Part shown: positions 5,614-30,741 of the stretch, in pieces
Position numbering within the stretch: the first letter of the stretch is position 1
Layout of the letters: every line of letters starts with the position of its first letter
Origin: an uncultured Methanosarcinales archaeon
GTDB lineage: Archaea > Nanobdellota > Nanobdellia > Woesearchaeales > JACPBV01
NCBI GenBank assembly: GCA_964492935.1
Contig: CAZBLF010000006.1
Coordinates: forward strand, 1-43,649
Length of the DNA stretch: 43,649 nucleotides
Direction: 5' to 3'
Notes under the pieces: generated by a model
Databases searched by the model: none
Told to the model about the DNA's origin: nothing
What the model saw: only the letters and a program-made list of their open reading frames with translations
Position numbers and translations under genes: made by a program

Positions 5614-5704
5614 TTTCCACTTGCCAACTTAGGTTGTCAAGTCTGAAAGCAAAGAATTCTTACTCTTTAGGTATTCAAGAGGTAAAATCAATTTCCACTT
5701 GCCA
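5614..5704 (+). repeat. Direct repeat TTTCCACTTGCCA (5614-5626 and 5692-5704) upstream of the endonuclease gene
   Basis: 13-nt identity; each copy is preceded by GGTAAA(C)ATCAA. Confidence 0.7.
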
Positions 5705-5779
5705 CTTGCCAGGTGCGGCCGCAGCCTTCTTAAGGAAAATCAATTACAAAGTTTAATCAGTACTAGTAGATCGATTCAA

Positions 5780-6703
5780 ATGAAAAATATCCAAAAGGAA
5801 ATAATAGAAGTTATCAAGTATGTCCCGAGAGAGATTATCCCAAGACGCGGCCATCTGAAACCCCTCAGAGCAGAAGCAAAAGGTAATTCGATCATATTAA
5901 GCTGTAATCACTGTAAGCCAGTTAGAATCAAGAAAGAGATTACCCTCAGAGCAGACGAATACCAGGGAGTGGGACTCTATTTGGCAGAAGGAACGAAGTA
6001 TTACAACCTCAATAAGAAAACGCATCATTGCGGAGAAATAAGCTTTTCAAACTCATATCCTGAATGCATTTTAATCATCTCTAAACTATTTAGTAAATTC
6101 GGCATCAGTCCCAGAGAGTTAAGATGGAGGATTGGACTCAATATAAATCTTGAAGAGACGATTTCTAATGGGGAGTTAGCTGAATTCTGGATAGCCAGTG
6201 CGAAATTGGACAGATCTAAAGCCAGACCAAATGGATTTTACTTCAGTGGTAATAGGGGAAAACGACTCTCAAAAAATCCCGGAAATAAAGGATGCCTTCA
6301 TATCCATTACGCATCTACGATTCTGAGAAATGTTTTCACCTTCTTCATAACTAGAAAACTGGATGAGGCGATAGAAGAAAGGTCTGAATGGAAGTCAGCA
6401 ATGATCCTGAAGGGATTTTTCGCAGGGGATGGGTGTGTGACATATTCGAAAAAGCACAACGGAAGACAGGTAGAGTTCATATGTCATGACAAGATATTAA
6501 TCGAAAAACTTAGAAAATGCCTGCAAATTCTTGGGCTGAAATCCATAAAGGAAACCTGGCCTGCTACTACAAAGACCCACTCCAAGGCGTTGCGCATTTA
6601 CAACACACATGATTTTAGAATTCTAGAGAAATACGAGATTCTAGAACTCATCCCACACAAACGCGAAGTGTTCAAGAAACTGCTTAAATCATTACCACCA
6701 TAA
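5780..6703 (+). CDS. Free-standing double-motif LAGLIDADG homing endonuclease-like protein
   Basis: Motifs GVGLYLAEG and LKGFFAGDG. ATG 5780 is preferred over TTG 5699. Confidence 0.8.
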   Translation: MKNIQKEIIEVIKYVPREIIPRRGHLKPLRAEAKGNSIILSCNHCKPVRIKKEITLRADEYQGVGLYLAEGTKYYNLNKKTHHCGEISFSNSYPECILIISKLFSKFGISPRELRWRIGLNINLEETISNGELAEFWIASAKLDRSKARPNGFYFSGNRGKRLSKNPGNKGCLHIHYASTILRNVFTFFITRKLDEAIEERSEWKSAMILKGFFAGDGCVTYSKKHNGRQVEFICHDKILIEKLRKCLQILGLKSIKETWPATTKTHSKALRIYNTHDFRILEKYEILELIPHKREVFKKLLKSLPP

Positions 6704-6766: not shown

Positions 6767-7390
6767 GTGAAAAAAGAAATCATTCCAGCAATCATAGTAA
6801 AGAACCAAAAAGACCTAGACGTAGCTCTCGTCAAGGCAAAATTCGCAAAACGAATCCAAATTGACATCATGGACAACAAGTTCGTAAAAAACTCCTCCCT
6901 CCAGTTCAATTTCAAGCTCAAAACAAAAGCAAAAGTTGAAGCACACTTAATGGTACAACATCCATTACAATGGATAAAAAACCATGCCTCCAAAGTAGAC
7001 GTCATCCTCTTCCAGCACGAATCTAAAGATAACAACGAAGAAGTAATCAAGGCCATCAAAGCAGCAAAAAAAACACCCGGAATAGTAATCAATCCAGAAA
7101 CAGAGATACAAGAAATCGAACCAATCCTAAGCAAAGTAAAGGAAGTCCTAGTAATGACCGTCCATCCCGGATTCTATGGCAGCAAGTTCGTCCCAGAAAC
7201 ACTCAAAAAAGTAACCCAACTCAGAAAATTAAAACCCGCTCTAAACATCGAAGTCGACGGCGGAATAACAAACAAAACAATAGCAAGAGCAAGCAAAGCA
7301 GGAGCTAATTTATTTGTCTCCGGCTCTTTCATCATGAAAAGCCCAGAACCCGAAAAGGCTGCGAAAGAACTTGAGAAACTAATCCATTAA
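6767..7390 (+). CDS. rpe: Ribulose-phosphate 3-epimerase
   Basis: IQIDIMD, EAHLMV, VMTVHPGFYG, IEVDGGI and FVSGS motifs. Confidence 0.93.
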   Translation: MKKEIIPAIIVKNQKDLDVALVKAKFAKRIQIDIMDNKFVKNSSLQFNFKLKTKAKVEAHLMVQHPLQWIKNHASKVDVILFQHESKDNNEEVIKAIKAAKKTPGIVINPETEIQEIEPILSKVKEVLVMTVHPGFYGSKFVPETLKKVTQLRKLKPALNIEVDGGITNKTIARASKAGANLFVSGSFIMKSPEPEKAAKELEKLIH

Positions 7391-8604
7391 CTCCCTCTAC
7401 CTCTCAACTCATTACGAATTTCTTGAGGGGTAATCCCCTTCTTCGCCATCAGCAACAAGAGAAAGTACTGCAAATCAGCGATCTCCCAGACTAAATTATC
7501 TCGAGAGGTATAAGAAACCACTTCCTGAGTCTCCTCACTAATTTTCGCCATGATCTCGTTCTCACTAGCCGAAAGAGCAGAAGTATATGAACCCGCGAGC
7601 GGATTTTCAACTCTATCTCGCACCACTGAATACAAATCATCCAGGCAGTATTCTTTATCTCCAAAGCAAGAATACGAAGCAGTGTGGCAAGCAACATTCG
7701 TCTGCCGAACCGTAAACAAGAGGGAATCTCGATCACAATCATAACGTACGTTCAATAATTCCTGGAAATTTCCAGACGTCTCACCCTTCGTCCAAAGCTT
7801 GTTACGAGACCTACTGAAATACGTAGCCCTCCGAGAGGAGAAGGTCTTAAGAAGAGATGCAGAAGAAGAAAAAGCAAACATCAGCACCCTACCAGTATCA
7901 TCCTGAACAATAGTAGGGATCAACCCTTCCGAAAAATCTAAAAGCGAAACAAACGTTGCAGACAAAGAAATCTTTTCTGTATAGAGTGCCATCCCTATCT
8001 GCGAATTACATCCCATCTCCTCCAGGCGCAACACATCCTCCTGCGTGGTAACCCCTCCAGCAACCGTCAATGTATTGGCAGTACTCTTTCGAAGTTGATT
8101 AATCCTCTCCCAATCAACCCCCTGCATCATTCCCTCTTTATCTACATCAGTGAACAAAAATTCAGAGCAATACGGCTCGAGTAATCTCATCCTTTCCTCA
8201 ACCGCAACTCGAGTATCATTCCGCCACCCCTCATCGACCACACTTCCCTTAACAGCATCCACAGCAACAATCACCTTATCCCTAGGGAGCTGCTTCAAGA
8301 AGGAAACCTCTGCCCGAGTACCAATAATGATTTTCGAAGCTCCAGCCCTCAGCAGTTCCTTAGCTCGACCAACACTGCGAATGCCTCCACCTACCCTACA
8401 CGATGCAATGCTACAAAGCTCCTTTACCAGAGCAAGGTTGTCACCTCTACCCAGAGCAGCATCCAAATCAATCACAGCAATCTCGCCATACATCCGAAAT
8501 TCCTCAGCTAACGCTATAACATCCGAGCGTTCCAAAACTTTCTTCTTACCTTGAACGAGTTGAACCGCCTTCCCCTCCATGAGGTCAATACTAGGAATCA
8601 TCAT
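7387..8604 (-). CDS. hisAIE: Trifunctional HisA-HisI-HisE fusion
   Basis: N-terminal [14 protein letters not shown] and VGGGIR (HisA); KGETSGN...DCDRD...ACHT...SCF (HisI); SYT...KISEE...EIADL (HisE). Confidence 0.9.
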
Positions 8605-9356
8605 TGTCGCACCTCCATACTATTACCAATAAGGGCCTTTTTGACATCACCAATCGTACATTCGCCAGTGTGAAACAGAGAGGCAGCCAGAGCAGCATCT
8701 GCCTTTCCAAAAACAAAAACTCCACTAAAACTCTCGAAGGAACCAGCCCCACCTGAAGCAATCACCGGAATACCTACTGCAGTAGCCACCTGCATCGTCA
8801 AATAACTGTCAAATCCCTGACGAGTACCATCTCGGTCCATAGAGGTTAATAATATCTCACCAGCACCAAGTTTCTCAGCTTTCCGCGCCCACGCAACGAC
8901 ATCCTTGCCGGTATTCTCTCGACCACCCTTGACAAAAACCTCCCACCCTACCCCTTTCTGCTTTGCATCAATAGCAACAACAATACACTGCGAACCAAAA
9001 AGAGCAGCAGCCTCACTAATCAAAGATGGATTTTTCACCGCAGCCGTATTCAGTGAAACCTTATCAGCACCAGCCTGTAACAAAGCCCGAATATCCGAAA
9101 TACTAGATATACCTCCCCCGACCGTAAAAGGGATGAACACCTCCCGAGCAACCTTTCGAACAACATCAATCATCGTTTTCCGACCCTCACACGATGCAGT
9201 AATATCCAAAAGAACAAGTTCATCGGCACCCTGCTCGTTATACTTCTTAGCAAGTGCCACCGGATCTCCAGCATCCCGCAAGCTAAAAAAGTTTAGACCT
9301 TTCACAACCTTTCCATCCTTCACATCTAGACAAGGAATGATTCTTTTAGCTAACAT
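8601..9356 (-). CDS. hisF: Imidazole glycerol phosphate synthase cyclase subunit
   Basis: [39 protein letters not shown]. Confidence 0.97.
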
Positions 9357-9931
9357 AGCAACCACCGTTCCAAAAACTGTAGTCCATAGTCACCAGACTT
9401 TTCTGGGTGGAATTGAACTGCAGTAATACTGCCAGATTCAACCGTACACGCAAACGAACAACCATACTCCGAAGTTGCAGTAACAATAGCTGGATCAGCA
9501 GGAACCACATAATATGAGTTAGCAAAATAACCGTATCCCTTCGCCAGCAAGCTGGGAGGGCAAGGCAATATGGTATTCCATCCCATCTGAGGAACCTTTC
9601 CAAGATTGAATTTCTGGACAGAACCCTTCAACACCCCGAGCCCAGAAACTCCTGGACTCTCCTCACTTGTTTCAAACAACGCCTGCATTCCAAGGCAGAT
9701 GCCAAGAAAGGGCTTACCTGAGGATAAATAATCCTTCAATACCTCAATCAACCCCTTTTCACGCAAAGCCTCCATCATCGCTCCGAATGCACCTACGCCA
9801 GGTAATACAACCCTATCTGCGGCACCTATATTCGATGCAGAGGAAGTGATGACCGATTCCACTCCAAGACAATCTAGTGCATTCTTCACACTTTGCACAT
9901 TCCCTATCCCGCAGTCTATTATCGCTATCAT
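9350..9931 (-). CDS. hisH: Imidazole glycerol phosphate synthase glutaminase subunit
   Basis: [32 protein letters not shown]. The ATG overlaps the hisB stop (ATGA). Confidence 0.96.
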
Positions 9932-10527
9932 CGTAAGATCCCCTTTACTCCCGCAATCGCATTCTTCCTCCAAGGAGTATCCCGAAAGCAATCCCTGATG
10001 GCCTCTCCAAGCGCTCTGAACACGGTTTCCCAGATGTGGTGCGGATCATAGCCCTCCAACACCTTAACCTGAATCGTAGCCTGCATTCCCTGTGCCAACC
10101 CTTCAATGAAATTCTGCAAATCACATCCCTTCATATCCTCGACATTCCGAACAAAGGCTTTCTTACCCTTCAAGTCCACGAACGAGTTACTACGACCCTC
10201 AAAACTCACACAAACGACAGATAAAGCTTCATCAAGAGCAGCAACGCTATATCCACTTCCTCGAACCCCCTTGGGAAGTTTCTGTTCAAAAAGTCGAGCA
10301 AGGGCCCTACCTAAAACTAACCCACTATCTTCAGCAATAACGTGCTCAAGTTTGAAGTTAGTCATAGCAACAGCTACATCCATGTTCATGCAAGCTCTCC
10401 ACGCAATAGTTTCAATCATGTGGTTCAAAAATTGCAGTCCCGTATCTATCTTGAACTCTCTCCGCGGCAATTCATCTACCTGAACCACCACCTCTGATTC
10501 CCTTGTTGTTCTTTTTTCTTCTATCAT
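9928..10527 (-). CDS. hisB: Imidazoleglycerol-phosphate dehydratase (divergent)
   Basis: RTTRES, TGLQFLNHM, LDEAL and DPHHIWE motifs; operon context. Confidence 0.9.
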   Translation of the reverse strand: MIEEKRTTRESEVVVQVDELPRREFKIDTGLQFLNHMIETIAWRACMNMDVAVAMTNFKLEHVIAEDSGLVLGRALARLFEQKLPKGVRGSGYSVAALDEALSVVCVSFEGRSNSFVDLKGKKAFVRNVEDMKGCDLQNFIEGLAQGMQATIQVKVLEGYDPHHIWETVFRALGEAIRDCFRDTPWRKNAIAGVKGILR

Positions 10528-11834
10528 TTCAACCTCCGATCGACAGATGCCCTGTGAGCATCCAGTCCCTCTACATCCGCTATCCTATTCACAATCGGTT
10601 GCAACTTCCGCAACCCCATCTTACTCACATCCGAATACTGAACACGCTTCATAAATGTCCAAACTCCAACTGCTGAAGTCCTTTTAGCCCACCCACTCGC
10701 GGGCAGGATGTGATTAACTCCAGACGCATAGTCTCCTAAGGCAACAGGATTATACATCCCCAAAAAAACACTGCCAGCATTTGTTATCTGTTCTAAGACG
10801 AGACGTGGATTCTCAGTAAGAATCTCCAGGTGCTCAGGAGCATACGAGTTAGTGAACTCAACAGCCTCATCCAGCGTATCAACGAGCAGGATACCGCAAT
10901 AATTTTTCAAAGCACTTTGAAGATACTCTTTCCGGGAAAGCAGCTCAAACTGTTTCTTAATCTCCTCTTGAGTAAGGCGAGCAAGCTTCCCTGAAGTCGT
11001 CACCAGCACCGCAGCAGAATCAGGTCCGTGTTCTGCCCGAGCCAGGATGTCGGCAGCACAATACTCAGCTTTTTTCTGAAGATCAACACCTTTAGATAAA
11101 CCCCCATCAGCAATAATGACGGCCTCACTCGGACCTGCAGGCATATCAATAGCAACCCGCTCCTGACAGAGAATCTTTGCAGCAGTCACCCACGGACTTC
11201 CCGGTCCAGCAATCAGTTCAACGGGTTTAACTGTCGAAGTTCCATATGCAAGCGCAGCAATCGCCTGAGCACCGCTCATACGATAGATCTCCGTAACGCC
11301 ACACTCAGCTAACGCAACAAGCGTCTCATACTGATTTCCTTTTGGAGAGATTGCAGCAACAATTCTACCACTACCTGCCAGCACCGCAGGAACTGCTAGT
11401 ATTTGTGCAACCGTGGGAAACGGATTCTTCCCACCAGGAATATACAGTCCAACCGCCTCTATCGCAGTCCATTTCTCTCCAACAACAATGCCCTCGCCAG
11501 TAGTACCTTCCCAATCCTGGATGGCAGATCGCTGCCTCTCGTGGAACCGCTGCGCATACCGAATCTGCTCCCTGATTGCAGAAAGAACCTCTGGAAGAAT
11601 ATTTTCGTACGCTTTCTCAATCTCTTGCGCATCAACACACAGCATACTCTTCTGAAAAGCTGCATCATCAAATTTCTGTGCATAGCGAACCAAAGCTGAA
11701 TCTCCCTCAGCCCTTACCTCTTGAATGATAGCTCTAACCGCTACCTTAACCTCCTCCAACTCATTCTGCGACCGCAGCAACAGACGTCGAAATGCCCGAC
11801 TCTTCTTATCCCTCATCGAATACCTTCTTATCAT
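10524..11834 (-). CDS. hisD: Histidinol dehydrogenase
   Basis: VGLYIPGG, GAQAIAALAYGT, DMPAGPSE, AEH, APEHL, GDYASGVNHILP, EGLDAH. Confidence 0.95.
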   Translation of the reverse strand: MIRRYSMRDKKSRAFRRLLLRSQNELEEVKVAVRAIIQEVRAEGDSALVRYAQKFDDAAFQKSMLCVDAQEIEKAYENILPEVLSAIREQIRYAQRFHERQRSAIQDWEGTTGEGIVVGEKWTAIEAVGLYIPGGKNPFPTVAQILAVPAVLAGSGRIVAAISPKGNQYETLVALAECGVTEIYRMSGAQAIAALAYGTSTVKPVELIAGPGSPWVTAAKILCQERVAIDMPAGPSEAVIIADGGLSKGVDLQKKAEYCAADILARAEHGPDSAAVLVTTSGKLARLTQEEIKKQFELLSRKEYLQSALKNYCGILLVDTLDEAVEFTNSYAPEHLEILTENPRLVLEQITNAGSVFLGMYNPVALGDYASGVNHILPASGWAKRTSAVGVWTFMKRVQYSDVSKMGLRKLQPIVNRIADVEGLDAHRASVDRRLK

Positions 11835-13079
11835 TTTATTACCTCCAAAAAATCCAGAATTTGGTTTACATCCTCAAGCACCTGTTCGGCACCCTCCAAC
11901 TTAAACGTGAAAGTAGAACTTTTGACCCCTACAAAGCGAACATTGGCAGCTTTCGCCATCATCGCATCAGCAGGCAAATCTCCAACATAGACTATCTCTT
12001 GCAATCCCAGCTTTTTCCGAGCGAGAGTCAATCCATCAGCACAGGGCTTCTGCCTATCCTCAGAAAGATCATCCCGAGTAATAAGGACCTCAAAATAGTC
12101 AAGCAATTTATATTTTTTTAAGGTAGAAACTGCCTCATCTCGTGGTCTACCCGTAACAATTCCCAATGAAGCTCTAGAAGAGAGACTTTGCAAAGTACCT
12201 TCATTAACAAGCAAACGCTCTTTATTCCAGATCTCCCGAGAGAGATAACGCTGAAACACTTCCACTATTTCCTCAAAATCCACCTCAACACCCTCTCTCC
12301 GCAGCAGTTCCCTACAACAATCCCACTCGTTATTGAATCCACTTTGCTTCACGGCAGCAAACTCCAGTAATGCAACAGGACGCTTCAGAAATTGACCAAC
12401 GGTTTTGCAAGATGCTACTCCATACGATTCGCTACTATCAACCAACACCCCATCCATATCAAAAACAATTGATTGCCGAACGGGAGAACCAAGAATAACA
12501 AAATCACTTTGAGCGATGAGGTCATACACTTTCAATCCACATTGTTCTAGCGTTTTTCCTGTATAGACGATGTCGATGACCAAATCAGCAATGCCTTCCT
12601 TACAACTTACCTCCACGCACCCGTTGACATAAATTTTCTTGAAAGTATACCCATTCTGCTCAAGAAAGTTAAGATACGATTTTCCAAGATTTTTATATTT
12701 AGCCGCAATACAAACAGTAAGGCGTTTCGGAAGATCTTCAAGATTCCTATCTTTAGGACCTAATAAACAAAGAGCAGGCTTACCATATTTTGCCCGAGCA
12801 TCATTCCAAGGAATCCTAGCAAGAATGGTAGGGGGAACAGTACTCTGTTGAGCGCAATATTCATCATACAAATCCTCTCCCGTTAACCCAATGACCTTCT
12901 TTCCCTTACCCTGAAACTCTTCTACCCAAAACGGGACATCCTCCCCTCTCACCTCAAGTATTTTTGAGGAGTCAACATTCTGAAGACTAGGAAGTGCTTT
13001 TTCCCTATATTCTTGCAGTCCGCCATTCTTCGGAACGACAATGAATACAATCCTTAGCGTTAACTAACGAGTCTACCAT
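11831..13079 (-). CDS. hisG: Short-form ATP phosphoribosyltransferase fused to a HAD phosphatase; predicted to need a +1 frameshift at 13043 (about 415 aa)
   Basis: Frame is open from 13063 to 11831 with IVVPKNG, VRGEDVP, GLTGEDL, NGCVEV, DIVYTGKTL, then FDMDGVLVD...KP...VGD (HAD). No in-frame ATG/GTG/TTG precedes the conserved N-terminal strand. The RBS-preceded ATG at 13079 is in another frame. Confidence 0.85.
13005..13079 (-). promoter_or_regulatory. Leader ORF 2 (MVDSLVNAKDCIHCRSEEWRTARI*) with a single His codon
   Basis: GGAGGTGA RBS (13091-13084) 4 nt before the ATG; TGT ATT CAT T at 13049-13040. Confidence 0.75.
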
Positions 13080-13105
13080 AAACTCACCTCCAAGGGAACA
13101 GAAAG

Positions 13106-13177
13106 GGCGGTAGCCGAGAATCGAACTCGGACCGCAAGGCCCACAACCTTGTATTCTACCAGTAAACTACTACCGCC
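13106..13177 (-). tRNA. tRNA-His(GTG), intronless, G-1 encoded
   Basis: G GCGGTAG TA GTTT ACTGGTA GAAT A CAAGG TTGTGGG CCTTG CGGT CCGAG TTCGATT CTCGG CTACCGC C, with G-1:C73. Confidence 0.95.
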
Positions 13178-13244
13178 ATAAGAAATATCAACAAAAGAAC
13201 TCAAACAAGAACAAAAACTTAAACTACTAAAATTAGACTCACAA

Positions 13245-13307
13245 CTACCAAGAATGAATACAACCAGCGTCGGTGACGCCTTTGTCCTCAAGTAATACGG
13301 TGTTCAT
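13245..13307 (-). promoter_or_regulatory. Leader ORF 1 (MNTVLLEDKGVTDAGCIHSW*), probably leaderless, with a single His codon
   Basis: ATG lies 30 nt from the start of a TATA box; TGT ATT CAT T at 13262-13253. Confidence 0.7.
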
Positions 13308-13325
13308 AAAAAAGAAGAAGTGCAA

Positions 13326-13349
13326 CTTTATATTTAAGTCTTTTCATTC
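13326..13349 (-). promoter_or_regulatory. BRE/TATA promoter for the leader-tRNA-His-his operon
   Basis: Minus strand GAATGAAAAGAC-TTAAATATAAAG: a purine-rich BRE followed by a TATA box. Confidence 0.65.
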
Positions 13350-13370
13350 ATCAAGAGGAAGTAGCAAAAA

Positions 13371-14246
13371 TCATTCAACAATAGCCTTTATCTCAGAACC
13401 AAACATTTCTGAAGCACGCTTAACATACTCCTCAATATTATCAGTAAAGTACGGCGGATGCTGTTTCTGAATATTACCAATAACGAAATAACCAATTGCC
13501 ATCAGGGCAGCATACGAAGCATCAGCAGGCAACGGAATGTCCAAGCGATGCTTCCCAAACTGTGAATTCGAATCACCAAACGAAATAAATAATTCTTTGT
13601 CATTAGGAACAACCGTTTTAGCATGTTTTGTCTGATCCACAGTAAAAACACGCCCATTCACAACGGACCCAAACAACTCATCGAATTTAGTCAGCAACAT
13701 CTCTCGCATCGCATCAAAACGAGAAGGAACAATCAAATAGAACGCAGAATATGAAGCAAAGTCCTTAGGTATCAAAGGAACAACCTCTTTTTTGATAAAC
13801 TCCAAAATCGCAGCAGGATCTTCTTTTGTTTTTCCCAAAATCATGCTCATATACGTCGAAGTATTGTAGGTATACGGCTCAGCCTGTTTCGGAAACACAA
13901 ACGTCTCATGCACGAGCGTTTTAGCAGGCGCATCTGTATTACACGTCAACAGCCGAGTCTCAATTTTCAATCGCTTCAATTCCTTAGCAATAATCGGAGC
14001 ATGTTTAGCACCCGATGCCGAAATCAAGATAGCACCATCCACAATATCCAAATTATCCCGATACGTACCCTCATCCGCAAACACCGCATCAGAACCCTCC
14101 ATAATGATTCTACCCGTAGCAGCAGCATTACCTGAACCAACAACAAGAGGACGATCATAGGAACCAAGATGCAATTCAGGAATACCTTCAGCAATAAACA
14201 GCTGCAATGCAGATAGTACACATTCATCCAGACCAATAATCTTCAT
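13371..14246 (-). CDS. SIS-domain (sugar isomerase-like) protein
   Basis: VVGSGNAAATG and ILISASGAK resemble SIS phosphosugar-binding loops; substrate cannot be determined. Confidence 0.55.
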   Translation of the reverse strand: MKIIGLDECVLSALQLFIAEGIPELHLGSYDRPLVVGSGNAAATGRIIMEGSDAVFADEGTYRDNLDIVDGAILISASGAKHAPIIAKELKRLKIETRLLTCNTDAPAKTLVHETFVFPKQAEPYTYNTSTYMSMILGKTKEDPAAILEFIKKEVVPLIPKDFASYSAFYLIVPSRFDAMREMLLTKFDELFGSVVNGRVFTVDQTKHAKTVVPNDKELFISFGDSNSQFGKHRLDIPLPADASYAALMAIGYFVIGNIQKQHPPYFTDNIEEYVKRASEMFGSEIKAIVE

Positions 14247-14303
14247 AAGAAAAAATAAATCAAAATTCCTTTTTATATCTTTTGTTAAACCTCAAAAATA
14301 AAG

Positions 14304-16293: not shown

Positions 16294-16359
16294 ACCTCAA
16301 TCATGACATTTGCCCTATAAATAGCTTACGAAAAAAACGCCAGCCCCCAAAAAAATAAA

Positions 16360-16473
16360 CGCCACCGCCCGGATTCGAACCAGGATATCCAAAGGAAAGA
16401 CGCTCTCACGATGATGTCCTGAGCAAGCTCAAGATTTCGAGGCGACCGCAATACCAGATTATGCGACAGTGGC
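16360..16473 (-). tRNA. tRNA-Ser(CGA) with 31-nt canonical 37/38 intron (16405-16435)
   Basis: GCCACTG/CGGTGGC acceptor, G73, long variable arm, CT-CGA-A loop, CCTGG-TTCGAAT-CCGGG T arm. Confidence 0.9.
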
Positions 16474-16679
16474 ACAATCATCAAAAACAGCTGCTAGAAT
16501 AAAAAGGTAATGAAAAATCAATCTCCTAACGAAGCGTGAAGTGATTCAGCTTGCTTTCTCACTTTCTTTTCCATAGATAACACTTTTTGCGACATGTCGA
16601 CCGGCTTCTTAGTCGCCGCGACTACACCATAGGAGCAGTAAAAATAAAATGGTGAAGCCACATATGGCCTCACCAATAA

Positions 16680-16806
16680 CGCTGCGACTCGGATTTGAAC
16701 CAAGATAGGCCGAAGCCAACAAGCTGTCTGGTACGATTTTCCAAGCCTACGCCTTCTTTATCGAGGATAAAAAAGTTTGCGCAGTACCAGATTGTGCCAT
16801 CGCAGC
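16680..16806 (-). tRNA. tRNA-Ser(GGA) with two introns: 29/30 (16747-16776, 30 nt) and 37/38 (16726-16738, 13 nt)
   Basis: GCTGCGA/TCGCAGC acceptor, G73, long variable arm. BHB helices GCGC/GCGT and TTGG/CCAG. Spliced anticodon arm CAAGC-TTGGAAA-GCTTG. Confidence 0.9.
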
Positions 16807-16807
16807 A

Positions 16808-17512
16808 CTAGTTTTTCAATTCCGCCTTTTTATTTAAACCTAATGTTTTTGAGAGAGTGTTTGATTTTTTAGAATGCCAAAATCCAATTTTCTGGCGAAA
16901 CAATTCCCGAGACTTCTTTTTATTGATGAAGATAATGCTTACAGGAGAATGCTTTTTATTCTTTGGCAGATATTCATAACACCGATGATCTATTTCCATT
17001 TCTCGAAGCAATTGTGAAACCTGACCCATGCCCTTTTTATTTATTGTCTGAATCTTAATACATTTGGGACCAACATAAGCTTCTGCAGAAAAGAAAGCTC
17101 GTAACCAAGCTTCTTTAGCCCCATTAATTTTAAAAAGTTTCCAGGGCAAACTCCAATCCAACAGACCGAAGGTTGAATGTTCAATCAAATCTTCGTATAT
17201 GGTGCGAGAGGTGAGCCGCACGTAGTAAAAATTGTTTCTCAATTTTATTGAAAAAATCCTCCCGTACACATGTTTCATCGCACCACAAAAATATTCAAGC
17301 ATCTCAGGATCATCCGGGAAAAATTTTATTTCATGGTGTACATTTGACTTTTCTTTTCTCAATTTTACACTCCCATCTCCCGCTAGAAAGCCACATATCG
17401 CCGCCTTATTAATCAGGGATTCGGCATCGGATCGGATATTTGCTCTTTCTTTACCATGTACTTTGGACCAGCGAGCCAAAGCAACTTTTCTGTTTCTATC
17501 TGAATATTTCAT
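16808..17512 (-). CDS. Free-standing double-motif LAGLIDADG homing endonuclease
   Basis: Motifs ICGFLAGDG and LRAFFSAEA. The stop lies 1 nt upstream of tRNA-Ser(GGA). Confidence 0.85.
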   Translation of the reverse strand: MKYSDRNRKVALARWSKVHGKERANIRSDAESLINKAAICGFLAGDGSVKLRKEKSNVHHEIKFFPDDPEMLEYFCGAMKHVYGRIFSIKLRNNFYYVRLTSRTIYEDLIEHSTFGLLDWSLPWKLFKINGAKEAWLRAFFSAEAYVGPKCIKIQTINKKGMGQVSQLLREMEIDHRCYEYLPKNKKHSPVSIIFINKKKSRELFRQKIGFWHSKKSNTLSKTLGLNKKAELKN

Positions 17513-25448: not shown

Positions 25449-27947
25449 ATGAAATTAAGAAAAGCAGTAAAGAAAATCATTGCCCTTGGTACAGGTGCAA
25501 CAATGATCGGCGCAACATTAGGCGCAGGTGCATTTGCAGCAGACCTTAGTGACTACCCAGAACCATTCGTCAAGGATGGAAAATTCTCAGGATTACTTGT
25601 CGTGGGAGACAAGGCAGCAGCAGAAGACGTTGTAGGTGTTTCAGACATTGCAATCAGTCTACAGTTCGCAGCAACCAAAAAATCCGGAGCAAGCAAATCA
25701 ACCGCTTCCGTTGAAGGAGATGTTTGGAGAGTAGGTACGTCATCCAAGAAATTGGAAATGGCTGAAAACGTTGATACCATAATCGACGGAGAAAACCTAA
25801 GAAACATCACCACCTCTATCGACGAACAGGAACTATCCGGTCTAGCCGACGGTGAAATTACCACCGAAAAAGGCAGAGCTGGCTACAACCAGTACCTGAA
25901 CTTCGGAAACCTAATCAAGTCCAACACAAAGGGATCTGGTTATGTGCAGTTCTTAGAAAACGACGACGACGTAGCAGCTGACTTCTTCTATGTAAGAAGC
26001 TCAGAAGAAATCGCTAGATACTCTCTTGAGTTCAAGCAATCGCTAAAGTCCGATGTTGAAGACAGCACGGGTGCAAAAGCAACCACAGGACTCTTCCTTG
26101 GAGACCTAGAAGACGAAACCTTGACCATCATGGGCCAAGAATACACCATCGTAAAAGCACGAAGAACAAGTGCAGCAGGAAGTTCAGTTGAACTAACTTT
26201 GATGGGCGGCGCTTCAAAAGATAGCTTAGAAGAAGGAGAAACGAAAACCTACACCCTTGCAGGCGTAGACTACGAAGTAACCGTAACCGCAATCACCGAC
26301 ACCGGAACGATCTATGCAAAGTTCTCCGTTAACGGAGAATCAACCAGATCACTACGAGACGGAGAAACCACCACACTATCTGATGGAACACAAATTGGTG
26401 TAACCGATTTGATCCCTAACGAAGCTGGTGACGTAACCCCTGACCTTGTAGAGTTCTACATCGGAGCTGACAAGCTATTCTTGAAGGACACAAAAGTGTC
26501 TGACACCGCATCCTCGAATTCAATGGAAGTTGGAAACGAAGATATCGATGACGTAAACGTTATCATCACAGGAACCGATGACAACACCACGTTCAACATC
26601 GACAGCATTCAGCTAAACGTGACAGCAGACGACGATTACTACGTTGCAGCTGGCCACAAACTATCTGAATACATGGACGAGCCTGAAGGATTAGTAGGTT
26701 GGGACATCATGTACTCTGGTTTAGAAGACGTTGAAACCGAAACCATCAGAATCAAGACCTCTGGTTCAGACCAGTATGATCTTGTATTCGTAGACGGTGA
26801 CGGAAACTCCGCAACCATTCCTATTGCGTACTCCGCAAGCGGAGCCAACCTGATTCAGGGAGACAGCAATGACGTTTTGGTCTTGAACGGATCACAGGCC
26901 ATTGCGAAAAACGATTATTTCGTTGTTTCCGATGTGAACCAGGACGATGGAGAACGAAGAAGCTACGCTCTTCGTTACAAGGGAGCTGACAAGGTACAGT
27001 CTGGAGAAACGGCAAGCGTTAAATTCGACAACCTAGGAACAGGTAAGAGAATTGAAAAGACGTTCACCAACCAGGTTGGAGATACAGCAGACGCTGAGTT
27101 GAAACTTGGAGGAGCAACCTTCAACGTTCTTAACGCATCCGACCACACAGAAAACGACTTTAAGATTCGAGTCGACCTGGATGGAGACGGTACAACCCTA
27201 ACCGACACCGACAACATTGCTATCAACACCGAAGCTGGTCTGAAGATTGTAGTCAACAACAACACGTTGAACGCATCTCACATCCTGGTAACATTAAGCA
27301 CACCGAACTCGAACGACTATGATAATGTTGTTCCAAATGATGTGGTTATGAACCTAACAGCAGCTTCTGGCGAAGTAGCATTTGGTGAAGCTTCAACCAG
27401 CACCATCAACTTCGTTGCCCCTTCAGAGGAAACGAACGTTCGATACGCATACACCAGTATGGGTGCAAAGGTTAAGTGGGACAACCCAACCAACGATCCT
27501 GACCAGTTAACTATCTGGTACCCAAAGCAGCAGAGACTACCTCAGGTATTCGTTGTTGCTGAAGGCGGTTCAGTTTCATCTGGTTCTTCGGAATCAGTTG
27601 AGTCGGTAACCATCAGCAGAATCGATGTAGGTGCAACCAAATTAGCATCAGAAGTTGGCAGCGTAGGAGCACAAAACGTCATCCTTGTAGGAGGACCTTG
27701 TGCAAACGCAGCTTCCGCTGAAGCTAAAGGTAACCCTGAAGACTGTGCAGCAGATTACGAACCTGGAAAGGCTCTAATCGAATTAGTTGACACAGGCGCA
27801 GGTAACTGGGCACTTGTTGTAGCTGGATACTCAGCAGGCGATACAAGAACGGCAACTTCCGTTGTTGCAAACGCAGGCGACTACAACCTTCAAGGATTGA
27901 AGGCTGAAGTAACCACAGCAACCAGCACCGTAAGAGAAGTCAGCTAA
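25449..27947 (+). CDS. S-layer protein, copy 1
   Basis: KKIIALGTGATMIGATLGAGAFAADLSDYPEPF N-terminus and NVILVGGPCAN...VVAGYSAGDT C-terminus, as in Methanococcus/DPANN-type S-layer proteins; acidic; GGAGGTG RBS. Confidence 0.9.
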   Translation: MKLRKAVKKIIALGTGATMIGATLGAGAFAADLSDYPEPFVKDGKFSGLLVVGDKAAAEDVVGVSDIAISLQFAATKKSGASKSTASVEGDVWRVGTSSKKLEMAENVDTIIDGENLRNITTSIDEQELSGLADGEITTEKGRAGYNQYLNFGNLIKSNTKGSGYVQFLENDDDVAADFFYVRSSEEIARYSLEFKQSLKSDVEDSTGAKATTGLFLGDLEDETLTIMGQEYTIVKARRTSAAGSSVELTLMGGASKDSLEEGETKTYTLAGVDYEVTVTAITDTGTIYAKFSVNGESTRSLRDGETTTLSDGTQIGVTDLIPNEAGDVTPDLVEFYIGADKLFLKDTKVSDTASSNSMEVGNEDIDDVNVIITGTDDNTTFNIDSIQLNVTADDDYYVAAGHKLSEYMDEPEGLVGWDIMYSGLEDVETETIRIKTSGSDQYDLVFVDGDGNSATIPIAYSASGANLIQGDSNDVLVLNGSQAIAKNDYFVVSDVNQDDGERRSYALRYKGADKVQSGETASVKFDNLGTGKRIEKTFTNQVGDTADAELKLGGATFNVLNASDHTENDFKIRVDLDGDGTTLTDTDNIAINTEAGLKIVVNNNTLNASHILVTLSTPNSNDYDNVVPNDVVMNLTAASGEVAFGEASTSTINFVAPSEETNVRYAYTSMGAKVKWDNPTNDPDQLTIWYPKQQRLPQVFVVAEGGSVSSGSSESVESVTISRIDVGATKLASEVGSVGAQNVILVGGPCANAASAEAKGNPEDCAADYEPGKALIELVDTGAGNWALVVAGYSAGDTRTATSVVANAGDYNLQGLKAEVTTATSTVREVS

Positions 27948-28242: not shown

Positions 28243-30741
28243 ATGAAATTAAGAAAAGCAGTAAAGAAAATCATTGCCCTTGGTACAGGTGCAACAATGA
28301 TCGGCGCAACATTAGGCGCAGGTGCATTTGCAGCAGACCTTAGTGACTACCCAGAACCATTCGTCAAGGATGGAAAATTCTCAGGATTACTTGTCGTGGG
28401 AGACAAGGCAGCAGCAGAAGACGTTGTAGGTGTTTCAGACATTGCAATCAGTCTACAGTTCGCAGCAACCAAAAAATCCGGAGCAAGCAAATCAACCGCT
28501 TCCGTTGAAGGAGATGTTTGGAGAGTAGGTACGTCATCCAAGAAATTGGAAATGGCTGAAAACGTTGATACCATAATCGACGGAGAAAACCTAAGAAACA
28601 TCACCACCTCTATCGACGAACAGGAACTATCCGGTCTAGCCGACGGTGAAATTACCACCGAAAAAGGCAGAGCTGGCTACAACCAGTACCTGAACTTCGG
28701 AAACCTAATCAAGTCCAACACAAAGGGATCTGGTTATGTGCAGTTCTTAGAAAACGACGACGACGTAGCAGCTGACTTCTTCTATGTAAGAAGCTCAGAA
28801 GAAATCGCTAGATACTCTCTTGAGTTCAAGCAATCGCTAAAGTCCGATGTTGAAGACAGCACGGGTGCAAAAGCAACCACAGGACTCTTCCTTGGAGACC
28901 TAGAAGACGAAACCTTGACCATCATGGGCCAAGAATACACCATCGTAAAAGCACGAAGAACAAGTGCAGCAGGAAGTTCAGTTGAACTAACTTTGATGGG
29001 CGGCGCTTCAAAAGATAGCTTAGAAGAAGGAGAAACGAAAACCTACACCCTTGCAGGCGTAGACTACGAAGTAACCGTAACCGCAATCACCGACACCGGA
29101 ACGATCTATGCAAAGTTCTCCGTTAACGGAGAATCAACCAGATCACTACGAGACGGAGAAACCACCACACTATCTGATGGAACACAAATTGGTGTAACCG
29201 ATTTGATCCCTAACGAAGCTGGTGACGTAACCCCTGACCTTGTAGAGTTCTACATCGGAGCTGACAAGCTATTCTTGAAGGACACAAAAGTGTCTGACAC
29301 CGCATCCTCGAATTCAATGGAAGTTGGAAACGAAGATATCGATGACGTAAACGTTATCATCACAGGAACCGATGACAACACCACGTTCAACATCGACAGC
29401 ATTCAGCTAAACGTGACAGCAGACGACGATTACTACGTTGCAGCTGGCCACAAACTATCTGAATACATGGACGAGCCTGAAGGATTAGTAGGTTGGGACA
29501 TCATGTACTCTGGTTTAGAAGACGTTGAAACCGAAACCATCAGAATCAAGACCTCTGGTTCAGACCAGTATGATCTTGTATTCGTAGACGGTGACGGAAA
29601 CTCCGCAACCATTCCTATTGCGTACTCCGCAAGCGGAGCCAACCTGATTCAGGGAGACAGCAATGACGTTTTGGTCTTGAACGGATCACAGGCCATTGCG
29701 AAAAACGATTATTTCGTTGTTTCCGATGTGAACCAGGACGATGGAGAACGAAGAAGCTACGCTCTTCGTTACAAGGGAGCTGACAAGGTACAGTCTGGAG
29801 AAACGGCAAGCGTTAAATTCGACAACCTAGGAACAGGTAAGAGAATTGAAAAGACGTTCACCAACCAGGTTGGAGATACAGCAGACGCTGAGTTGAAACT
29901 TGGAGGAGCAACCTTCAACGTTCTTAACGCATCCGACCACACAGAAAACGACTTTAAGATTCGAGTCGACCTGGATGGAGACGGTACAACCCTAACCGAC
30001 ACCGACAACATTGCTATCAACACCGAAGCTGGTCTGAAGATTGTAGTCAACAACAACACGTTGAACGCATCTCACATCCTGGTAACATTAAGCACACCGA
30101 ACTCGAACGACTATGATAATGTTGTTCCAAATGATGTGGTTATGAACCTAACAGCAGCTTCTGGCGAAGTAGCATTTGGTGAAGCTTCAACCAGCACCAT
30201 CAACTTCGTTGCCCCTTCAGAGGAAACGAACGTTCGATACGCATACACCAGTATGGGTGCAAAGGTTAAGTGGGACAACCCAACCAACGATCCTGACCAG
30301 TTAACTATCTGGTACCCAAAGCAGCAGAGACTACCTCAGGTATTCGTTGTTGCTGAAGGCGGTTCAGTTTCATCTGGTTCTTCGGAATCAGTTGAGTCGG
30401 TAACCATCAGCAGAATCGATGTAGGTGCAACCAAATTAGCATCAGAAGTTGGCAGCGTAGGAGCACAAAACGTCATCCTTGTAGGAGGACCTTGTGCAAA
30501 CGCAGCTTCCGCTGAAGCTAAAGGTAACCCTGAAGACTGTGCAGCAGATTACGAACCTGGAAAGGCTCTAATCGAATTAGTTGACACAGGCGCAGGTAAC
30601 TGGGCACTTGTTGTAGCTGGATACTCAGCAGGCGATACAAGAACGGCAACTTCCGTTGTTGCAAACGCAGGCGACTACAACCTTCAAGGATTGAAGGCTG
30701 AAGTAACCACAGCAACCAGCACCGTAAGAGAAGTCAGCTAA
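28243..30741 (+). CDS. S-layer protein, copy 2 (identical translation)
   Basis: Same 832-aa sequence as copy 1. Confidence 0.88.
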   Translation: MKLRKAVKKIIALGTGATMIGATLGAGAFAADLSDYPEPFVKDGKFSGLLVVGDKAAAEDVVGVSDIAISLQFAATKKSGASKSTASVEGDVWRVGTSSKKLEMAENVDTIIDGENLRNITTSIDEQELSGLADGEITTEKGRAGYNQYLNFGNLIKSNTKGSGYVQFLENDDDVAADFFYVRSSEEIARYSLEFKQSLKSDVEDSTGAKATTGLFLGDLEDETLTIMGQEYTIVKARRTSAAGSSVELTLMGGASKDSLEEGETKTYTLAGVDYEVTVTAITDTGTIYAKFSVNGESTRSLRDGETTTLSDGTQIGVTDLIPNEAGDVTPDLVEFYIGADKLFLKDTKVSDTASSNSMEVGNEDIDDVNVIITGTDDNTTFNIDSIQLNVTADDDYYVAAGHKLSEYMDEPEGLVGWDIMYSGLEDVETETIRIKTSGSDQYDLVFVDGDGNSATIPIAYSASGANLIQGDSNDVLVLNGSQAIAKNDYFVVSDVNQDDGERRSYALRYKGADKVQSGETASVKFDNLGTGKRIEKTFTNQVGDTADAELKLGGATFNVLNASDHTENDFKIRVDLDGDGTTLTDTDNIAINTEAGLKIVVNNNTLNASHILVTLSTPNSNDYDNVVPNDVVMNLTAASGEVAFGEASTSTINFVAPSEETNVRYAYTSMGAKVKWDNPTNDPDQLTIWYPKQQRLPQVFVVAEGGSVSSGSSESVESVTISRIDVGATKLASEVGSVGAQNVILVGGPCANAASAEAKGNPEDCAADYEPGKALIELVDTGAGNWALVVAGYSAGDTRTATSVVANAGDYNLQGLKAEVTTATSTVREVS

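Follow-up and report, generated by a model that had tools for sequence, protein, structure and literature searches.

What is the function of a stop-free reading frame that begins in the leader of an archaeal his operon, runs through a complete tRNA-His gene and ends at the start codon of hisG? To our knowledge, in-cis sensing of amino acids by archaea is largely unknown, and we know of no attenuators or T-boxes established in this domain. The frame was noticed in a sequence-only reading of a stretch of 43,649 nucleotides (the whole of which is called the window below), and it was followed up here in the window and in related loci.

Organization of the leader, tRNA-His and hisG in the window

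The leader, tRNA-His and hisG features are all located on the minus strand:

13326 to 13337, minus strand: TATA-like box, putative his-operon promoter, about 19-30 nt 5' of the ORF1 ATG
13245 to 13307, minus strand: leader ORF1 (ATG 13307-13305, TAG 13247-13245), encoding MNTVLLEDKGVTDAGCIHSW and then a stop
13253 to 13259, minus strand: first candidate +1 shift site, ATT CAT T (predicted shift)
13073 to 13255, minus strand: +1 frame extension, 60 codons followed by TAG 13075-13073; conserved open in relatives
13181 to 13232, minus strand: T-rich spacer; contains a T5 run (13217-13213) and TTTAAG (13223-13218), which may be a weak internal TATA box
13105 to 13177, minus strand: tRNA-His(GTG) with encoded G-1 and no intron (13176-13105 by ARAGORN; Rfam RF00005)
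13084 to 13091, minus strand: Shine-Dalgarno (SD) sequence of hisG, GGAGGTGA, 4 nt before the ATG
13005 to 13079, minus strand: hisG start ATG with its 0-frame reading MVDSLVNAKDCIHCRSEEWRTARI and a stop; codons 1-12 encode the genuine N-terminus of HisG
13040 to 13046, minus strand: ATT CAT T within hisG, the second candidate site for a +1 shift (predicted shift)
11831 to 13042, minus strand: short-form HisG joined to a HAD phosphatase domain; with respect to ATG 13079 it is read in the +1 frame
7387 to 11834, minus strand: hisD, hisB, hisH, hisA and a hisF-hisIE fusion (Pfam)

The sequence was compared with contigs of two DNA runs, which may be the source of the window, and zero differences were found over positions 11800-14300. 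The identical arrangement was present on three other metagenome contigs. One RNA run contained 8% of the sampled words, and its sole contig (13906-14155) lies in the upstream gene, outside the leader; a second putative RNA run gave no match.

Alignment of 38 regions upstream of ORF1 revealed an A/T block (0.89-1.00) at -30 to -24 and a purine-rich block at -41 to -33. This signature fits a promoter whose mRNA has ORF1 at its very 5' end, and the short distance between the TATA-like box and the ORF1 ATG implies a leaderless mRNA; the his-operon transcript probably starts at ORF1. The single His codon of ORF1 (CAT 13256-13254) is located two codons before the stop. At the candidate site an Ile codon would occupy the P site and the His codon the A site, and the codon available in the +1 frame is again Ile (ATT). 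Leader peptides homologous to ORF1, ending in ..AG[CY][IL]H.., were found in G039, G004, G054, G043, L048, L049 and L129. In G043 the same leader module precedes a classical hisG, and the leader stop overlaps the hisG ATG.

The sequence-only reading had described a frame of 60 codons without stop or His codon that covers the whole tRNA-His gene and stops on the next start codon, and translation bore this out. From 13255 onward the +1 frame (ILGSCESNFSS...SVPLEVSLW) has zero stops and zero His codons over 60 codons, and its TAG lies 4 nt past the A of the hisG ATG (13079-13077). The tRNA-His scored 58.9 bits against RF00005 (threshold 29) with a GTG anticodon according to ARAGORN, and it has a G directly before G1 and a C directly after the acceptor stem. 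One of the three frames of the tRNA gene is open, namely the one used by the +1 extension. For the window alone the departure from chance is modest, a shuffled spacer remaining open with P = 0.18. The genome also contains a second tRNA-His gene, with a 15-nt intron (G000:C1:95486-95572), a point on which the earlier reading had asked for a check. A BLAST search with the window tRNA-His for second copies in relatives yielded one in G061 and none in G004 and G062, but it missed the known linked copy in G063 and was therefore too insensitive to count.

The hisG start and a candidate shift site inside hisG

The hisG SD has 8 nt of complementarity to the 3' tail of 16S rRNA (the tail was read from L122). 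The ORF that it precedes had been taken for a second leader; the frames, the SD and the orthologues show instead that it is the N-terminus of HisG, which would require a +1 shift at a His codon to be joined to the remainder of the protein. Pfam assigned HisG (PF01634, 9.2e-20) and HAD_2 (PF13419) to the downstream frame, in agreement with a short-form HisG, and in the window no ATG, GTG or TTG was found in the HisG frame between the upstream stop (13066-13064) and the conserved core. A canonical start in the HisG frame is likewise lacking in 9 of 56 loci, the window included. An SD-ATG was present in 36 of the 56 loci examined, and in 31 of these it was in the -1 frame relative to the HisG core (19 of 19 in the held-out set). 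The combination of a missing HisG-frame start and a strong SD-ATG in the -1 frame indicates that hisG needs a +1 shift, and from the sequence the candidate position at which HisG could be made, and the only one, is 13046-13040.

The junction itself is conserved. A pyrimidine-ending codon followed by CAY was found in 48 of the 56 loci and in 25 of the 27 held-out loci. Among the 46 unique sites the A-site codon was CAT in 44 and CAC in 2, with T at -2 in 43 and at -1 in 41; the base after CAY is never G, so that the +1 codon is nearly always Ile. The predicted read-through product begins with MVDSLVNAKDCIIVVPKNGG. The contiguous orthologues G004/L083 and L049, in which the gene is not interrupted, read exactly as the predicted shift product, the sequence in G004 being METPALAKDCIIVVPNN across the hisG N-terminus. 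The locus has two of the characteristics expected of a programmed +1 frameshift of the prfB or hungry-codon type: a product encoded in two frames, and a conserved shift-prone P-site codon next to a His codon in the A site. An SD-like stretch (at least 5 nt complementary to the 16S tail) was found at -16 to -4 in 24 of 48 sites, versus 0 of 48 in a control window; in our own window the complementarity upstream of the hisG site amounts to only about 4 nt. The variability per codon position showed a clear third-position signal for the +1 frame 3' of the site, and no clear codon periodicity for either frame 5' of it. The assignment of the 0-frame N-terminus as coding is therefore based on the start signals and the orthologues and not on substitution patterns.

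Conservation of the +1 frame in related loci

Related loci were searched for with a 4-sequence alignment. A leader ORF and a tRNA-His upstream of hisG were present in 20 species-level DPANN loci. The sequence-only reading had asked whether the stop-free frame and the stop/start overlap are kept despite sequence divergence, and they are. The +1 frame is open through the tRNA, introns included, in 12 of the 20 loci (chance about 0.01 per locus) and in 5 of the 10 held-out metagenome loci with leader ORF and tRNA. In these 12 loci its end is found between -6 and +10 nt of the hisG ATG, or the frame enters hisG in phase with the ATG. Stops in the homologous frame had been named as evidence against the proposal. 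This objection applies in part, since the other 8 of the 20 loci form a second leader class that stops before the tRNA. Within the short-leader class a complete His path through the tRNA was found in 2 of 12 loci only and is not general.

The +1 frame reaches the hisG start in 16 loci, with P values from shuffling of 0.0003-0.21 each. The joint log10 P is about -35 if the 16 loci are treated as independent; they are related to one another, and the joint value overstates this independence. The openness of the +1 frame is highly non-random in the comparative data. The tRNA gene has a single open frame, which matched the +1 extension in 12 of 12 loci, also where the gene carries an intron of 20-57 nt. 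The stop of the +1 frame is located -6 to +11 nt from the hisG ATG in 11 of the 16 loci; three others have no stop there, the frame going through the ATG in phase with it, and L078 has its stop 24 nt upstream of the ATG. L126, a 72% relative, has kept both the open frame and the stop/start overlap (TGATG), and ATGA or TGATG overlaps are present in other relatives.

His codons are avoided in these frames. None was found in the 12 loci with a frame ending at the ATG, versus about 20 expected, and in the remaining loci the +1 frame has just one His codon, located at the next candidate shift site. The proposal that the frame is entered by a +1 shift at the His codon of the leader agrees with all of these data. 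Shifts at His codons alone suffice to connect the ORF1 ATG with the HisG core in 29 of 39 loci, versus 2-5 loci when Asn, Tyr, Phe, Gln or Glu codons were used; in the held-out set the numbers were 8 of 16 for His and 0-1 for the same five controls.

The tRNA itself had been proposed to act as a cis element that RNase P and RNase Z would cut out. It is not essential for the arrangement, as the same leader is found in loci without the tRNA (for example L092, L054, L042 and Iainarchaeum-type loci). Termination in the U-rich tract had been put forward as well. Runs of at least five T in the leader are missing from 4 of the 12 loci of the window's type, and such runs are expected anyway in A/T-rich spacers, so that they lend this idea no support.

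A proposed frameshift cascade, its alternatives and known systems

We consider it reasonably probable, on the basis of these sequence comparisons, that the leader of a leaderless his-operon mRNA senses charged tRNA-His via a cascade of programmed +1 frameshifts. When His-tRNA is plentiful, ribosomes on ORF1 would decode CAT normally and terminate two codons further on, and ribosomes starting at the hisG SD-ATG would decode CAT at codon 13 and produce a dead-end peptide of 24 residues. Under a shortage of His-tRNA, no tRNA would fill the A site at CAT, the ribosome would move by +1 and Ile-tRNA would read ATT. The shifted ORF1 ribosome would then translate the 60 His-free codons over the spacer and the still unprocessed tRNA-His, and termination 4 nt past the hisG ATG would deliver ribosomes to the hisG start or open it (translational coupling). 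The stop at +4 in the window is as expected for termination-reinitiation coupling. Full-length HisG-HAD would result from a further +1 shift, at codon 13 of hisG, and two serial His-dependent gates would steepen the response. From the arrangement of frames and sites we infer that shifting occurs, that it depends on His-tRNA and that the coupling raises hisG expression. More speculatively, the tRNA-His gene could serve as a default-off element, which folds and is cut out when no ribosome passes. A wider version is put forward tentatively, and we hold it possible but somewhat doubtful: His synthesis in DPANN would be under a +1-shift cascade in which the tRNA has a dual use, being cut out and uncoupling the operon if His is plentiful and being melted by shifted ribosomes if His is scarce. 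Ribosomes would then translate through the unprocessed tRNA-His gene, introns included.

Several other explanations were weighed against the cascade. Transcription could start mainly at an internal promoter 3' of ORF1 that drives tRNA-His and hisG, with tRNA processing creating the 5' end of the hisG mRNA; regulation would then occur at the hisG-internal site only, and the +1 frame of ORF1 would rarely or never be used. tRNA genes normally possess their own promoters, a clear TATA-like box precedes the tRNA by 31 nt in G004 (inside the +1 frame), TTTAAG is found 41 nt upstream of the tRNA in the window, and class II loci carry A/T-rich boxes before the tRNA. Both modes of transcription may coexist, however, and an internal promoter leaves unexplained why the frame is open through diverged spacers, tRNA and introns, why His is avoided and why the frame stops at the ATG; as the main explanation we regard it as unlikely. 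A slightly smaller chance is given to conventional upstream ORFs, in which no shift takes place. Translation of HisG would begin at a GTG or a non-canonical codon in its own frame, ribosomes would stall on two ordinary uORFs (ORF1 and the mini-ORF of the SD-ATG), and the openness of the +1 frame would be incidental. About 20 of 56 loci do have a HisG-frame GTG 15 nt upstream, L092 and L055 have an in-frame ATG, and the codon periodicity upstream of the hisG site points to neither frame. The GTG, however, is part of the SD-like motif and lacks an SD of its own, whereas the SD precedes the -1-frame ATG in the large majority of loci given above (31 of 36), and in nine loci, including the window, the HisG frame contains neither ATG nor GTG nor TTG. 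The contiguous orthologues agree with the shift product, and a ribosome stalled at CAT would be expected to cover the GTG, so that regulation would go in the wrong direction. The His-free open frame that ends at the ATG would have no explanation either.

The open frame could also be a neutral remnant, if ORF1 is a hisG 5' end that was duplicated when the tRNA-His gene was inserted. A repeat of about 20 nt around the shift site is common to ORF1 and the hisG N-terminus, and in L043 an ORF1-type peptide is fused directly to hisG. Still, a neutral frame of 54-137 codons is unlikely to have stayed open in 16-17 species that differ in the length and sequence of the spacer, and neutrality would not purge all His codons or end the frame at the ATG each time, which makes such an origin very improbable as a full account. 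A single-base frame break near the start of a gene is a common artefact, and would be the expected sign of a sequencing or assembly error or of a hisG pseudogene; given the agreement of the contigs from two DNA runs and three more metagenome contigs, and the same break at the same His codon in the 48 of 56 and 25 of 27 loci, the likelihood of an error is negligible.

Other readings were rejected. The 278-nt leader folds no better than shuffled sequences (z +0.79), with only the tRNA standing out, which does not support a hairpin attenuator. Searched against Rfam with E up to 1, the interval 12800-13500 gave the tRNA alone, plus two sub-threshold chance matches. Decoding of TAG as a sense codon is not needed, and the leader stops differ between loci. 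Transcriptional slippage was dismissed, there being no homopolymer at the shift site, as was an intron-like excision of the tRNA followed by ligation, because the ends produced by RNase P and RNase Z are chemically unfit for ligation.

The frameshift cascade resembles known systems in parts. One similar layout is that of the autoregulatory +1 frameshift of bacterial prfB (release factor 2), where a short 0-frame reading also terminates prematurely unless the ribosome shifts by +1 to make the complete product, a slow A-site codon follows a pyrimidine-ending P-site codon (often Leu or Ile), an SD-like element is located a few nt upstream (here in 24 of 48 sites, with only about 4 nt in the window) and the sensed entity is related to the product of the pathway. 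The systems differ in that prfB uses a stop codon and a release factor, whereas the sites described here have a sense codon (His) that would respond to charged tRNA-His in archaeal hosts, and at least two successive sites are present, of which one is in a leader ORF of its own. Yeast Ty1/Ty3, ABP140 and EST3 and antizyme likewise involve a +1 shift promoted by an empty or slow A site, with P-site codons of the CUU or GCN type, both of which occur among our loci; we know of none among them in which an aminoacyl-tRNA is sensed to control the pathway of the same amino acid. These systems use rare-tRNA or stop codons, or polyamines.

The enterobacterial hisL attenuator (RF00514) also has a short 5' leader ORF in which His codons report on His-tRNA. 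It contains a run of His codons, however, versus one in ORF1, and the read-out proposed here is a change of frame with coupling rather than termination of transcription; the window leader, with its one His codon, has no Rfam match to this family and no terminator/antiterminator structure by the folding comparison (z +0.79). T-box riboswitches upstream of his and aaRS genes sense the charging of tRNA-His in a his leader as well, but they are bacterial and bind the tRNA in trans, whereas the tRNA gene is present here in cis, inside the reading frame; no covariance-model match to RF00230 was obtained at E up to 1 over 12800-13500. In systems coupled by a stop/start overlap the first frame ends only a few nt from the following start codon, as it does here (+4), and in tRNA-mRNA co-transcripts that are cut by RNase P and RNase Z the tRNA is located directly upstream of the SD of the mRNA, as it is in the window. 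Unlike in these systems, the upstream frame could be reached here only after a frameshift, and it crosses a functional tRNA gene. We know of no precedent for a shift-reached frame that runs through such a gene.

A search of the literature found no paper describing a His-sensing frameshift leader that spans tRNA-His. In passages of a 2021 review (PMC8211752), a single -1 frameshift is listed as proven for the genes of cellular archaea, and none of the +1 type. The cascade, if it exists, would represent a new type of amino-acid switch. The wider DPANN version, if true, would supply the first example of each of three things: a programmed +1 frameshift in a gene of a cellular archaeon, a natural frameshift switch with an amino acid as its signal, and a functional tRNA gene that doubles as a translated sequence. 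The candidate is defined by sequence and widely conserved, with about 80 loci across DPANN lineages, and hisG genes of this kind are cut short or broken up by current gene callers. The cascade would also mean that a tRNA gene can be held under the constraint of a coding frame, and it would provide a compact translational switch that responds to an amino acid.

Layout of the his leader and the frame break in hisG

The hisG region of the window was annotated on the minus strand, with the following features in order of transcription:

13337-13326, minus strand: TATA-like box, about 19 nt before ORF1
13307-13245, minus strand: short leader ORF (ORF1), encoding MNTVLLEDKGVTDAGCIHSW followed by a stop
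13256-13254, minus strand: CAT, the sole His codon of ORF1
Between ORF1 and tRNA-His, minus strand: T-rich spacer
13176-13105, minus strand: tRNA-His(GTG), with G-1 at 13177
13091-13084, minus strand: Shine-Dalgarno sequence (SD) of hisG, GGAGGTGA, followed by ATG 13079
From ATG 13079, minus strand: frame of 24 codons, ending at 13005
In the +1 frame relative to ATG 13079, minus strand: HisG-HAD fusion (Pfam HisG and HAD_2)
Downstream of the HisG-HAD gene, minus strand: hisD, hisB, hisH, hisA and hisF-hisIE

The genome is an archaeal MAG of 1.15 Mb, 85% complete and with numerous intron-bearing tRNAs; its relatives carry the label Woesearchaeota. The HisG-HAD frame opens only at 13063, and none of ATG, GTG and TTG occurs in it ahead of the conserved core. 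Between 11800 and 14300, zero differences were found against contigs from two DNA runs, which are possibly the source of the window; at least 99% of the sampled words were present in seven runs from several studies, and three metagenome contigs of the same organism have the identical arrangement. The frame break in hisG is real and not a sequence error. A 2026 preprint on Nanobdellota genomes counted split genes as assembly frameshifts, and the accessible part of its text mentions neither hisG nor histidine.

The short frame at ATG 13079, taken for a second leader in the sequence-only reading, turned out to be the N-terminus of hisG itself: the orthologous gene in genome G004 is contiguous (product METPALAKDCIIVVPNN) and carries the same N-terminal peptide. 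In the window and in genome G039 this peptide lies in the ATG frame and the core (IVVPKN..) one base further, with ATT/CTT-CAT-T at the junction; if the four junction letters are taken as one step, the product is MVDSLVNAKDCIIVVPKNGG... The junction was compared in 56 loci (51 archaeal loci, the window and four further loci) among the clade's HisG relatives in species-representative genomes; locus L089 was left out (Ns) and L080 is without a start. In 48 of the 56, the frame junction has a pyrimidine-ending codon followed by a His codon, the remaining 8 being contiguous genes. At the 46 unique sites the P-site codon was mostly ATT or CTT, and the His codon was CAT (44/46) or CAC (2/46). The base after it was T, C or A but never G, and the codon read after the shift would therefore nearly always be Ile. 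With at least 5 nt of complementarity to the 16S tail (taken from locus L122) as the criterion for an SD-ATG, 36 loci qualify. Relative to HisG, the SD-ATG was in the -1 frame in 31 of these, solely in frame in 4 and two shifts off in 1; in nine of the 56 loci the HisG frame lacks a canonical start. An SD-like stretch lies immediately 5' of the P-site codon at 24/48 sites, against 0/48 control windows. Downstream of the site, third-position variability tracks the +1 frame (24 changes versus 11 and 10); upstream, no periodicity was seen in either frame.

Leader ORFs and the open frame through tRNA-His

Leader ORFs that have a His codon 1-5 codons ahead of the stop precede hisG in 39 loci. Their ATG follows a TATA-like block by about 23-30 nt and also a purine-rich block; the former spacing is typical of leaderless archaeal mRNAs, and transcription probably starts at the leader ORF. 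In the window, the frame entered from the ORF1 His codon is exactly as first described: from 13255 it continues for 60 codons free of stop and His codons, through the spacer and the complete tRNA (72 nt), and ends at TAG 13075-13073, 4 nt past the A of the hisG ATG. One of the three frames of this tRNA is open and the spacer remains open on shuffling with P = 0.18, so that at the window locus alone a chance occurrence is only mildly improbable.

The sequence-only reading had made conservation of this stop-free frame the check on its idea, and the outcome was mixed. Tallied in groups set without reference to the counted feature, 25 loci of the genome set have tRNA-His at most 300 nt upstream of HisG, 20 of them also with a leader-ORF candidate; the frame traverses the whole tRNA in 12 of these 20 and stops ahead of it in 8. 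The traversed tRNAs include introns of 20, 21, 45 and 57 nt, and the frames stop -6 to +10 nt from the hisG ATG or run into it in frame. Exactly one frame of the tRNA is open in all 12 loci; each match is therefore at best a one-in-three event, the spacers not yet counted. In the 12 frames ending at the ATG, the number of His codons is 0 against an expectation of about 20 from composition, and +1 frames that continue have exactly one each, which is the next shift site. Overall, the +1 frame is open up to the hisG start in 16 loci (15-120 codons), with shuffle P values of 0.0003-0.21 each and a joint log10 P of about -35, which assumes independence and is overstated for kin. When paths linking the ORF1 ATG with the HisG core were searched, with +1 shifts allowed at the codons of one amino acid only, His gave a path in 29 of 39 loci; the number was 2-5 each for Asn, Tyr, Phe, Gln and Glu, and 11-13 for Asp, Cys and Lys. 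Asp and Cys codons directly adjoin the shift site.

Metagenome contigs scanned after the hypothesis was formed provided a held-out set of 27 loci with no 40-mer in common with the first. The hisG site was found in 25 of the 27 (two doubtful), and the SD-ATG was in the -1 frame in all 19 loci having one, 4 of which also have an in-frame candidate. A leader ORF was defined automatically in 16 of the 27, and a complete His-only path in 8 of these 16 (Cys 7, Asp 3, Lys 2, and 0-1 for Asn, Tyr, Phe, Gln and Glu). Among the 10 loci that have leader ORF and tRNA together, the tRNA was traversed in 5. The closest relative, L126 (72% HisG identity), is on a contig that begins inside the tRNA; a run of 114 codons without stop or His overlaps the hisG start at its end (TGATG).

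Other leader layouts, tRNA-His copies and neighboring genes

Iainarchaeum-type loci have neither the tRNA nor a separate SD; their ORF1 (MNPTFFPLKQSDLLHN) is predicted to shift into a frame of about 30 codons, continuing to the second site and from there into HisG. In G043 the leader precedes a classical hisG and the +1 frame stops at TAA 5 nt after the ATG, in L043 a leader-type peptide is joined directly to hisG, and G005 (an unpublished genome) has a classical hisG without such a leader. Apart from this remark on G005, no result draws on that genome or on G013, which is likewise unpublished. Judged from the comparisons, the putative frameshift leader is conserved and the tRNA an optional insert, kept in frame where present in that leader class. 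A second class (L064, L069, L070, L076, L066, L063, L073 and L037) has a short ORF1, MKRV[DG][CY][IL]HC.., and a +1 frame of constant length (31-34 codons) with two or three His codons before the stop (..IHHHC*), followed by a conserved block of about 12 nt, an A/T-rich box and tRNA-His. This looks like a His-run leader peptide entered by frameshifting, a different read-out of the same putative sensor; the short-leader class differs in behavior from the leader class of the window.

A second tRNA-His(GTG), whose existence had been raised as a question, is present in the window's genome (contig C1, G000:C1:95486-95572). It has a TATA-like box of its own and, at the canonical position, a 15-nt intron. 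The gene linked to hisG is therefore an extra copy there. It is an extra copy in G061 as well. In all linked and unlinked genes seen (e.g. window 13180-13177, L002, L003, L064-L076), G1 is nearly always preceded by ATG, its G being G-1, which may be relevant to RNase P cleavage at -1. In L126 (positions 1-170) and, upstream of hisG, in L049, parts of the tRNA-His 3' end (T arm and acceptor strand) are duplicated between tRNA and hisG, which suggests repeated recombination at this spot. In L036 (G006:C3), a tRNA-His with a 44-nt intron is downstream, not upstream, of a contiguous leaderless hisG.

Two fusions in the his operon are unusual: short-form HisG with a HAD-family phosphatase (11831-13042, minus strand), the latter a candidate histidinol-phosphate phosphatase, and a HisF-HisI-HisE triple (7387-8604, minus strand). 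Elsewhere in the window, intron-bearing tRNA-Ser(CGA) and tRNA-Lys(TTT) adjoin a LAGLIDADG-domain ORF (16359-16474, 16679-16807 and 16808-17512, all minus strand); ARAGORN without intron mode misses both tRNAs. A second LAGLIDADG ORF is at 5699-6703 (plus strand). Tandem secreted-looking proteins of 832 residues (25449-27947 and 28243-30741, plus strand) are 100% identical (832/832); the 2.8-kb tandem duplication is either very recent or a product of assembly.

A putative sensor of His-tRNA

The window leader has no His run, matches neither Rfam His_leader nor T-box and, apart from the tRNA, has no structure (z +0.79). A full-text literature search returned no paper that describes an archaeal his leader or a frameshift at a His codon of hisG; for Archaea, the available part of PMC8211752 reports one demonstrated -1 frameshift (fucA1), and +1 events as suggested only. 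The sequence-only reading had added termination in the U tract and tRNA excision by RNase P/Z when ribosomes do not pass. These putative steps are compatible with a frameshift sensor; T5 runs are not universal among the leaders. In some loci an internal promoter may plausibly serve the tRNA, and it could operate alongside the leader.

On sequence comparison of loci that are related to one another, the locus is best read as a putative His-tRNA sensor made of +1 frameshifts at hungry His codons. In its operation it would resemble the feedback frameshifts of prfB and antizyme, as well as leader peptides that sense His-tRNA, but it belongs to neither kind. Both short frames would terminate when histidine is plentiful. 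When it is scarce, the ribosome on ORF1 would shift and translate the His-free frame through the spacer and the unprocessed tRNA, terminating on the hisG start and thereby coupling to it; a second shift, within hisG, would then yield the enzyme.
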